This document shows positions 7,577 through 8,511 of a stretch of DNA of 64,000 bases, piece after piece (position 1 is the first letter of the stretch; every line of letters starts with the position of its first letter). A program made the translations under genes and the position numbers. The notes under the pieces are model-generated. The model was not told where the DNA came from. It saw only the letters and a list, made by a program, of their open reading frames with translations, and ran no database searches. The stretch lies in NCBI RefSeq assembly GCF_056712565.1, contig NZ_CM160072.1. One strand, 5' to 3'.

Positions 7577-8511
7577 TTATTGAGTGACCAGGATTGAATC
7601 GACCAGTTTAAATTCCGGTGCTTTATCCAGCGGGATAACCTTGCCGGATTTCTCAGCGTCAACCATCAGCTTCAGACCCGTTGCACCGATATCCGCCGGG
7701 TTCTGGGCAACCGTCGCGGTCATTTGTCCGGCTTCCACCATTTTGCGGGCTTCCGGAATGCCATCTGTACCGACGACCAACACTTTGCCCGTTTTTCCAG
7801 CGTTTGCGACTGCCTGAGCAACACCCATTGCCATCGTGTCATTCGCGCAATAGATCGCTTTAATATTCGGATTACGTTGCAACACGTTAGTGGCGACATC
7901 CAGTGCTTTAATACGGTCCCAGTCGGCAGGCTGGCTGGCGACAAGCTTGATCTGGCTTGCTTTTTTGAAGGCTTCGGTGGCACCATTACGACGCGCTTCA
8001 CCGGAGGCGTTACCGGCTTTACCCTCAATGATTGCGACTTCACCCCCTTCGGCACCCAGCTTGTCAATAATGAATGACGCGCCTTTCGCCCCGACGGCAA
8101 CATTATCGGTGGTGACAAAACCTTCCACATTACCGCCTGCTTTTTTCAGATTATCCATGTCGATTTTTTCATCGAGATTGACCAGATAAATGCCTTTTTT
8201 CCATGCGCGGGCGACAGGCATGACCAGGTTCACTGAGGATAATGGTGCGAAGGCGATACCTTTGTAATTTTTATTACTGAGATCTTCAAATAACTGCAAT
8301 TGAGATTGAAAATCGCCTTCTGAAGGAGAGGCAAAAATATCAACGCTGACGCCCAGCGTTTTTGCTTCATCTTCAATGCTTTTTTCATATCTACCCAAAA
8401 TGGATTGGAGAGTGTTTTCAATACGACGGCATATTCGGCGGCAGCAAAAGCGCTGGTTGACAACATTAAGCCCACGAGTGTGCCGCTGAAATATTTCAGA
8501 TATTTATTCAT
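7577..8511 (-). pseudogene. alsB: Periplasmic D-allose-binding protein AlsB, disrupted by a 1-nt deletion near codon 45
   Basis: Signal peptide and first ~44 codons (MNKYLKYFSGTLVGLMLSTSAFAAAEYAVVLKTLSNPFWVDMKK) are in one frame (ORF 8230..8517); the rest (SIEDEAKTLGVSVDIF...) continues in another frame (ORF 7577..8398); shift lies in atgaaaaaagcattg around 8380-8388. Confidence 0.8.

Follow-up and report, generated by a model that had tools for sequence, protein, structure and literature searches.

In Escherichia coli the periplasmic receptor AlsB is reported to deliver D-allose to the AlsA/AlsC ABC importer, and deletion of alsB has been used to block the re-uptake of secreted allose, with an increase of the allose titre of about tenfold (PMC9633178). 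The locus described here raises the question of what has become of this gene: in a stretch of 64,000 nucleotides (hereafter, the window; contig NZ_CM160072.1 of the RefSeq assembly GCF_056712565.1) its coding sequence is spread over two reading frames, as might result from a true mutation, from an error of sequencing beside a run of adenines, or from a site at which slippage restores the frame. On the evidence set out below, an inherited deletion of one nucleotide, with ordinary pseudogene decay after the loss of the permease gene alsC, appears to be the best explanation, and we would put its probability at roughly 0.93. The parts of alsB on which the argument turns are the following.

7577..8511, minus strand: pseudogene of alsB, which codes for the periplasmic D-allose-binding protein; 935 nt against 936 in the intact gene (alignments, PGAP annotation and the protein-family model NF007254)
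8378..8385, minus strand: mutation site; A6 at 8380-8385, then a single G at 8379, where the intact alleles have GG
8230..8511, minus strand: 5' fragment of alsB in the frame of the start codon; 93 aa, ending with TGA at 8230-8232
7577..8398, minus strand: 3' fragment of alsB; an ORF of 273 aa from a TTG, with the native AlsB frame from 8377 (codons 46-311)

The sequence-only reading had described alsB as split over two frames after the signal peptide and the first 44 codons, through the loss of one G from a GGC codon, and both the open reading frames and the alignments agree with this description; the position that it gave for the adenine run, 8381-8386, was off by one, the run lying at 8380-8385 and the surviving G at 8379. 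The first ORF, with its annotated ATG at 8511, reads MNKYLKYFSGTLVGLMLSTSAFA followed by AAEYAVVLKTLSNPFWVDMKK and then by 49 out-of-frame residues; in other words, the 5' fragment consists of the 23-aa signal peptide, 21 native residues of the mature protein, which starts at Ala24 (the residue of the intact allele aligned with the first one of PDB 1RPJ/1GUB), and the 49 foreign residues. The native frame ends in NPFWVDMKK at codon 44 and the other 267 codons are found in a different frame, so that the frameshift falls at mature residue 22 and 21 of the 288 mature residues stay in frame. When the window was aligned to the intact allele of the ST95 strain UTI89, one base was missing, ATGAAAAAA[G]GCATT, and apart from this G the sequence was that of the ST95 allele; in the alignment to a K-12-like allele the single gap fell after nucleotide 132, in codon 45 (GGC, Gly45). 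Since the split is defined by comparison with orthologues that are intact and in other respects have the same sequence, it is evidently not a product of chance. Moreover, the 273-aa ORF of the 3' fragment has neither the signal peptide nor the first strand nor the ligand loop (SNPFW), and for this reason it probably could not replace AlsB as periplasmic receptor even if it were translated.

This DNA is alsB, yet its product is not an AlsB. The intact AlsB of UTI89, of 311 aa, is identical at 287 of 288 residues to the crystallised mature ALBP (1RPJ/1GUB/1GUD) and matches the NCBIfam equivalog model of AlsB, NF007254, which has a cut-off of 335 bits, with 650 bits over positions 1-311. The two fragments of the window tile the same model (ORF1 at positions 1-50 with 72 bits, ORF2 at positions 43-311 with 561 bits), no single frame of the window gene spans it, and in none is the signal peptide joined to the two-lobed binding domain. 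The gene lies in the orthologous position, the order alsK-alsE-alsC-alsA-alsB-alsR / rpiB being the same as in a K-12-like genome, and its frame is broken with respect to close orthologues in a manner reproduced in independent genomes, as in frameshift pseudogenes of the PGAP type; in fact, alsB is labelled 'frameshifted' in all the carrier records whose PGAP (RefSeq) annotation was inspected. It does not have the features of a phase-variable contingency locus: the change is from GG to G, with an A6 of invariant length, and among the 14 genomes with a nested alsE marker (see below) neither revertants of the deletion nor tract-length variants were seen.

The distribution of the lesion was followed with an exact 71-mer centred on the deletion, searched in 5,426 complete E. 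coli genomes. The mutant 71-mer was found exactly in 17 of them; the other 1,381 genomes that matched the probe all had at least one difference from it, and the extra base was present in all the matches listed. The 17 carriers come from five hosts (human, chicken, duck, pig, in this case a piglet, and dog) and from no fewer than three countries, the recorded ones being the USA, China and South Korea, and the serotypes recorded for them are O1:K1:H7 and O2:K1:H7. One carrier, SF-468, is a published ST95 genome that serves as the reference of one of the four sublineages defined by fimH, and its PacBio assembly was corrected with MiSeq (Illumina) reads via Pilon (PMC4645194); the references of the other three sublineages, SF-088, SF-166 and SF-173, have an intact alsB. 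Among public contigs (NCBI, ENA, Logan), the 273-aa ORF, which begins with MGRYEKSIEDEAK and exists only by virtue of the frameshift, was present on 476, including early draft genomes of clinical isolates, e.g., HVH 104, and it was also found in 818 index blocks. A metagenome scaffold of 220 kb containing this ORF had the same neighbour genes and the same split alsC.

The order in which the lesions arose can be read from the rest of the als locus, whose features are given below.

4959..5939, minus strand: alsC pseudogene, permease of the allose ABC transporter; codon 82 is an in-frame amber (TCG to TAG, at 5694-5696); the older lesion
5918..7450, minus strand: alsA, ABC ATPase; intact ORF of 510 aa
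4253..4948, minus strand: alsE, D-allulose-6-phosphate 3-epimerase; full length, with A79V (GCG to GTG at 4713)
3340..4269, minus strand: alsK, allose kinase; intact ORF of 309 aa
8570..9460, minus strand: alsR/rpiR repressor; intact, with 0 aa and 21 nt differences from K-12
9819..10268, plus strand: rpiB, allose-6-P / ribose-5-P isomerase B; intact, divergently transcribed

The amber codon that had been claimed for alsC was confirmed as one in-frame stop, at Ser82. As an exact 71-mer it was found in 124 of the complete genomes, and all 17 genomes with the alsB deletion have it: 13 of them gave a perfect match over 2,756 nt spanning both lesions, and in the other four alsC is annotated with an 'internal stop'. 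The same amber is present in UTI89 and in the type strain ATCC 11775, whose alsB is intact, and PGAP reports the 'internal stop' of alsC in these two strains and in every carrier whose annotation was read. Since the amber occurs in these strains together with an intact alsB, alsC died first, and alsB is a later, secondary hit in a transporter that was no longer working.

Two further changes arose after the deletion. The alsE A79V substitution was found in 14 genomes, all within the 17 carriers and nowhere else among the 5,426; AlsE is ancestral in the carriers ExPEC XM, PU-1 and FDAARGOS_1298. When the als locus was compared in 10 carriers, alsA V114A (GTC to GCC, window position 7110) was observed in three of them, namely ZJ3920, APEC E16002 and APEC E18006, which all belong to the 14 with A79V; the window has the ancestral Val. 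The marker sets thus nest as 124 > 17 > 14 > 3, with no conflict and no homoplasy, which fits clonal descent and not recurrent error or recurrent mutation. Local diversity in ST95 amounts to only 0-4 differences per 25-50 kb, which makes a ranking of genomes by their 25-kb scores uninformative for monophyly, and diagnostic 71-mers around single variants were used in its place. The lesion of alsB is inherited, and the 17 carriers probably form one clade, as suggested by the nested local markers and by a very close sequence identity. Over its first 25 kb the window is identical to strain Z0117EC0054, and no mismatch-free match to positions 25001-50000 was found in the genome collection; over 50 kb the window has four differences from ATCC 11775, two of which are the alsB deletion and alsE A79V. 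A synonymous SNP in eptA, at 29889, is private to the window with respect to the three genomes compared there.

The events may be put together as follows. In the alsC codon-82 amber background, in which the AlsBAC importer would already have been non-functional, alsB would for this reason have been free to decay, and the deletion of one G, passed on by inheritance, turned it into a pseudogene in one E. coli ST95 sub-lineage (ExPEC/APEC of the O1/O2:K1:H7 type). This second hit was presumably neutral, and the later missense changes in alsE and alsA would continue the decay. Translation of alsB would start normally, enter a junk frame after Lys44 and stop 49 codons later; no allose-binding protein would be made, the product keeping 21/288 mature residues. 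The approximately 780 nt of untranslated mRNA left ahead of alsA might, in addition, allow Rho-dependent polarity on alsACEK. The decay of allose transport that the sequence-only reading had suggested is supported by the alsC amber together with the alsB deletion, and the expected phenotype of the carriers would be a loss of allose uptake: import of D-allose by way of AlsBAC is almost certainly impossible in the ST95 sub-lineage.

Other explanations must be weighed against this one, and two of them concern the deletion as a single, real event. A G dropped beside a homopolymer in a genome whose real alsB is intact would be easily suspected, as the missing base lies directly after the A6 run and long-read assemblies are prone to indels in homopolymer contexts, and the sequence-only reading had itself raised this case. 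Yet the identical deletion is present in 17 independent complete genomes and in none of the 1,381 others that matched the probe, and Illumina reads served to polish the assembly of one carrier, SF-468; the ORF that only the frameshift creates occurs on 476 contigs, with the early draft of HVH 104 among their sources; the deletion co-segregates perfectly with ordinary SNPs, with alsE A79V nested inside it; and the lost base belongs to a GG dinucleotide, the length of A6 being kept. A change reproduced across assemblies and nested with SNP markers does not look like a sequencing or assembly artefact, and we attach practically no weight to this explanation. The same G might, instead, have been lost several times at a mutational hotspot, in which case the 17 carriers would not be one clade. 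Indels adjacent to homopolymers do recur, and there is an example close by, at window position 9536 between alsR and rpiB, where a 1-base indel in an A/T run is common to UTI89 and ZJ3920 and not to their close relatives. That indel reflects either homoplasy in a homopolymer or a mistake of assembly, and it contrasts with the cleanly inherited deletion in alsB, whose carriers all belong to a small set of genomes that hardly differ from the window, none of them outside the alsC-amber background and with the markers nested without conflict. A recurrent loss of the G seems to us very unlikely.

With the deletion accepted as real and inherited, it may be asked whether the gene is nevertheless expressed in full and whether its loss was of advantage. 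A −1 slip of the ribosome on the A6 run, or an A added there by RNA polymerase, would give a full-length AlsB with Gly45Ser: a −1 shift on the run (AAA AAA, then AGC) does restore the native frame, and the Lys codons AAA are slippery sites in E. coli, e.g., in the A AAA AAG of dnaX. In alsB, however, the zero frame is AT G AAA AAA GCA, which gives the heptamer G AAA AAA and not one of the form X XXY YYZ. The region 8290-8400 (111 nt) has a predicted fold with z = −1.68, and 13 of 200 shuffled sequences fold as well; no Shine-Dalgarno-like (AGGAGG-like) stimulator is evident upstream by inspection; and A6 is shorter than the runs needed for appreciable transcriptional slippage. Moreover, the allele is recent and derived, being present in 17 of the approximately 3,395 genomes that bear alsB, and it is not conserved, and the AlsB so restored would have no working transporter to serve, the permease gene being already interrupted by the amber. 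A programmed −1 frameshift of the dnaX type was also considered and rejected, A AAA AAG occurring only out of register and the ancestral alsB being a single frame, with no conserved arrangement in two frames. Recoding that yields AlsB at a useful level is therefore highly improbable, and the resemblance of the site to programmed frameshifting is one of sequence context only. We give as little credit to a combination in which partial −1 slippage, producing AlsB(G45S), and read-through of the alsC amber would leave a low-level or condition-dependent uptake of allose or ribose. A trace of leaky frame restoration at alsB is conceivable, with no obvious function and nothing in its support. As for selection, inactivation of alsB could have been advantageous in this ExPEC/APEC sub-lineage, for instance by sparing a useless periplasmic export or by removing a host liability; alsB and alsC are the only PGAP pseudogenes in the 50 kb around the locus (annotation of an almost identical genome), non-synonymous changes followed in alsE, at a conserved Ala, and in alsA, and the carrier clade has been successful across geography and hosts. 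By contrast, neutral decay would itself predict a second hit in a transporter already dead, the intact AlsR represses the operon, so that its cost should be small, and the als genes are not enriched in mutations, since four of the seven mutational events in 10 ST95 genomes fall in als structural genes, which make up about half of the 9 kb compared. An enrichment drawn from the comparison of the window with ATCC 11775 (two of four differences in 50 kb) is unsupported by this 9-kb table. The uptake of aminoglycosides via carbohydrate transporters, examined as a selective rationale, gains no support either, as AlsBACE could not be cloned and tested in the paper concerned. Selected and neutral loss are not distinguishable from these sequence data; we judge selection to be rather unlikely, and neutral decay is the most economical reading of the loss of alsB.

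The remaining genes of the locus had been regarded as intact, and alsA, alsE, alsK and rpiR are indeed all full length; for alsE this has to be qualified, because its A79V lies at a conserved residue. Ala79 of AlsE aligns with the Ala of the aGA(D/T) motif in four out of four structures of the ribulose-phosphate-epimerase family that were aligned, and the substitution may be mildly damaging; it may mean that the decay of the catabolic arm has begun. When compared to K-12, AlsK has 7 aa changes for 17 nt differences and AlsR none for 21, all of them synonymous. AlsR, which also controls rpiB, looks more constrained than the als structural genes, and this conservation would fit a continuing regulation of rpiB.

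Several other features were observed in the window. The gene melA (37768..39123, plus strand) overlaps the end of yjdF (39120..39770, minus strand), with a clean loss of melB, the gene for the melibiose permease; the junction without melB is contiguous in 1,264 of the 5,426 complete E. coli genomes, and K-12 MG1655 and most of the others are split at the end of melA, consistent with melB lying between there. The window thus lacks a second gene for sugar uptake, and the loss of melB is old, lineage-wide and not specific to ST95. In the phn genes, a 10-bp deletion corresponding to window positions 10856-10865 frameshifts phnP in the Korean APEC strains E16002 and E18006 (PGAP 'frameshifted'), and the window is intact there. 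An intact phnE ORF of 259 aa occupies 18793-19572; in K-12, phnE carries a frameshift. The window and Z0117EC0054 have in common a G215S change in phnE (SNP at 18930), which is not found in SF-468 or ATCC 11775. Finally, the stretch from about 56400 to 64000, adjoining cadC, is a remnant of a CP4-like integrative element, described here from what PGAP annotates in the corresponding part of Z0117EC0054 and not from the bases of the window themselves: it includes one gene of the GTPase family, genes for antirestriction and for WYL-domain, DUF932 and JAB-domain proteins, and a type IV toxin-antitoxin pair (yeeU/cbtA), together with DUF5983 and DUF4942 genes that are truncated and a tyrosine integrase that is frameshifted and lacks its N-terminal part.

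The lesion in alsB is already known, being an ordinary frameshift pseudogene annotated in RefSeq; among the papers that could be searched, none described the alsB or alsC lesions in ST95. In older annotations the 3' fragment was repeatedly deposited as a normal protein (ALD27272.1, EGB46226.1, ELH97546.1 and ELJ48124.1), and the names used in GenBank for the 273-aa fragment are 'D-allose-binding periplasmic protein' and 'allose ABC transporter'; such 273-aa 'allose ABC transporter' entries are to be regarded as pseudogene fragments and not as real proteins. What the present analysis adds is the order of the lesions and a nested set of lineage markers, in which alsC S82 amber, the alsB one-base deletion, alsE A79V and alsA V114A follow one another from the widest to the narrowest and could serve for the sub-typing of ST95; the rest is mostly bookkeeping. 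The locus also illustrates, on a small scale and in textbook fashion, the stepwise decay of an operon after a first knock-out.

It is useful to set this case beside known systems. With respect to AlsB/ALBP of K-12, part of the alsRBACEK operon, the locus, the gene order and the sequence are the same, and the difference lies in the frame, which in the window is broken at codon 45, leaving a pseudogene and not a functional member of the family. The −1 frameshifting of dnaX and of IS transposases is similar in that alsB likewise has an A6 run at the junction of the frames and a −1 slip would restore the frame; alsB differs from them in the register of the heptamer, in that no clear stimulators were evident, in the lack of conservation and in having a dead permease as its partner. 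[quoted passage not shown] Since these strains are without the operon and alsB is absent from 2,031 of the 5,426 complete genomes, the als operon is dispensable in E. coli. The outcome shared with the window is likely the loss of D-allose utilisation; unlike these strains, the window keeps the operon physically and carries point lesions in it, with the catabolic genes and the regulator still open. A parallel in the mode of decay may be sought in Shigella and Salmonella Typhi, in which metabolic pseudogenes accumulate after a first inactivating hit in host-adapted or clonal lineages. The als operon likewise underwent a first knock-out, the alsC amber, followed by clonal, nested lesions in the same pathway; by comparison it is a far smaller and more recent case, with four mutations in one operon of one sequence type, and the rest of the 50-kb als neighbourhood is intact.
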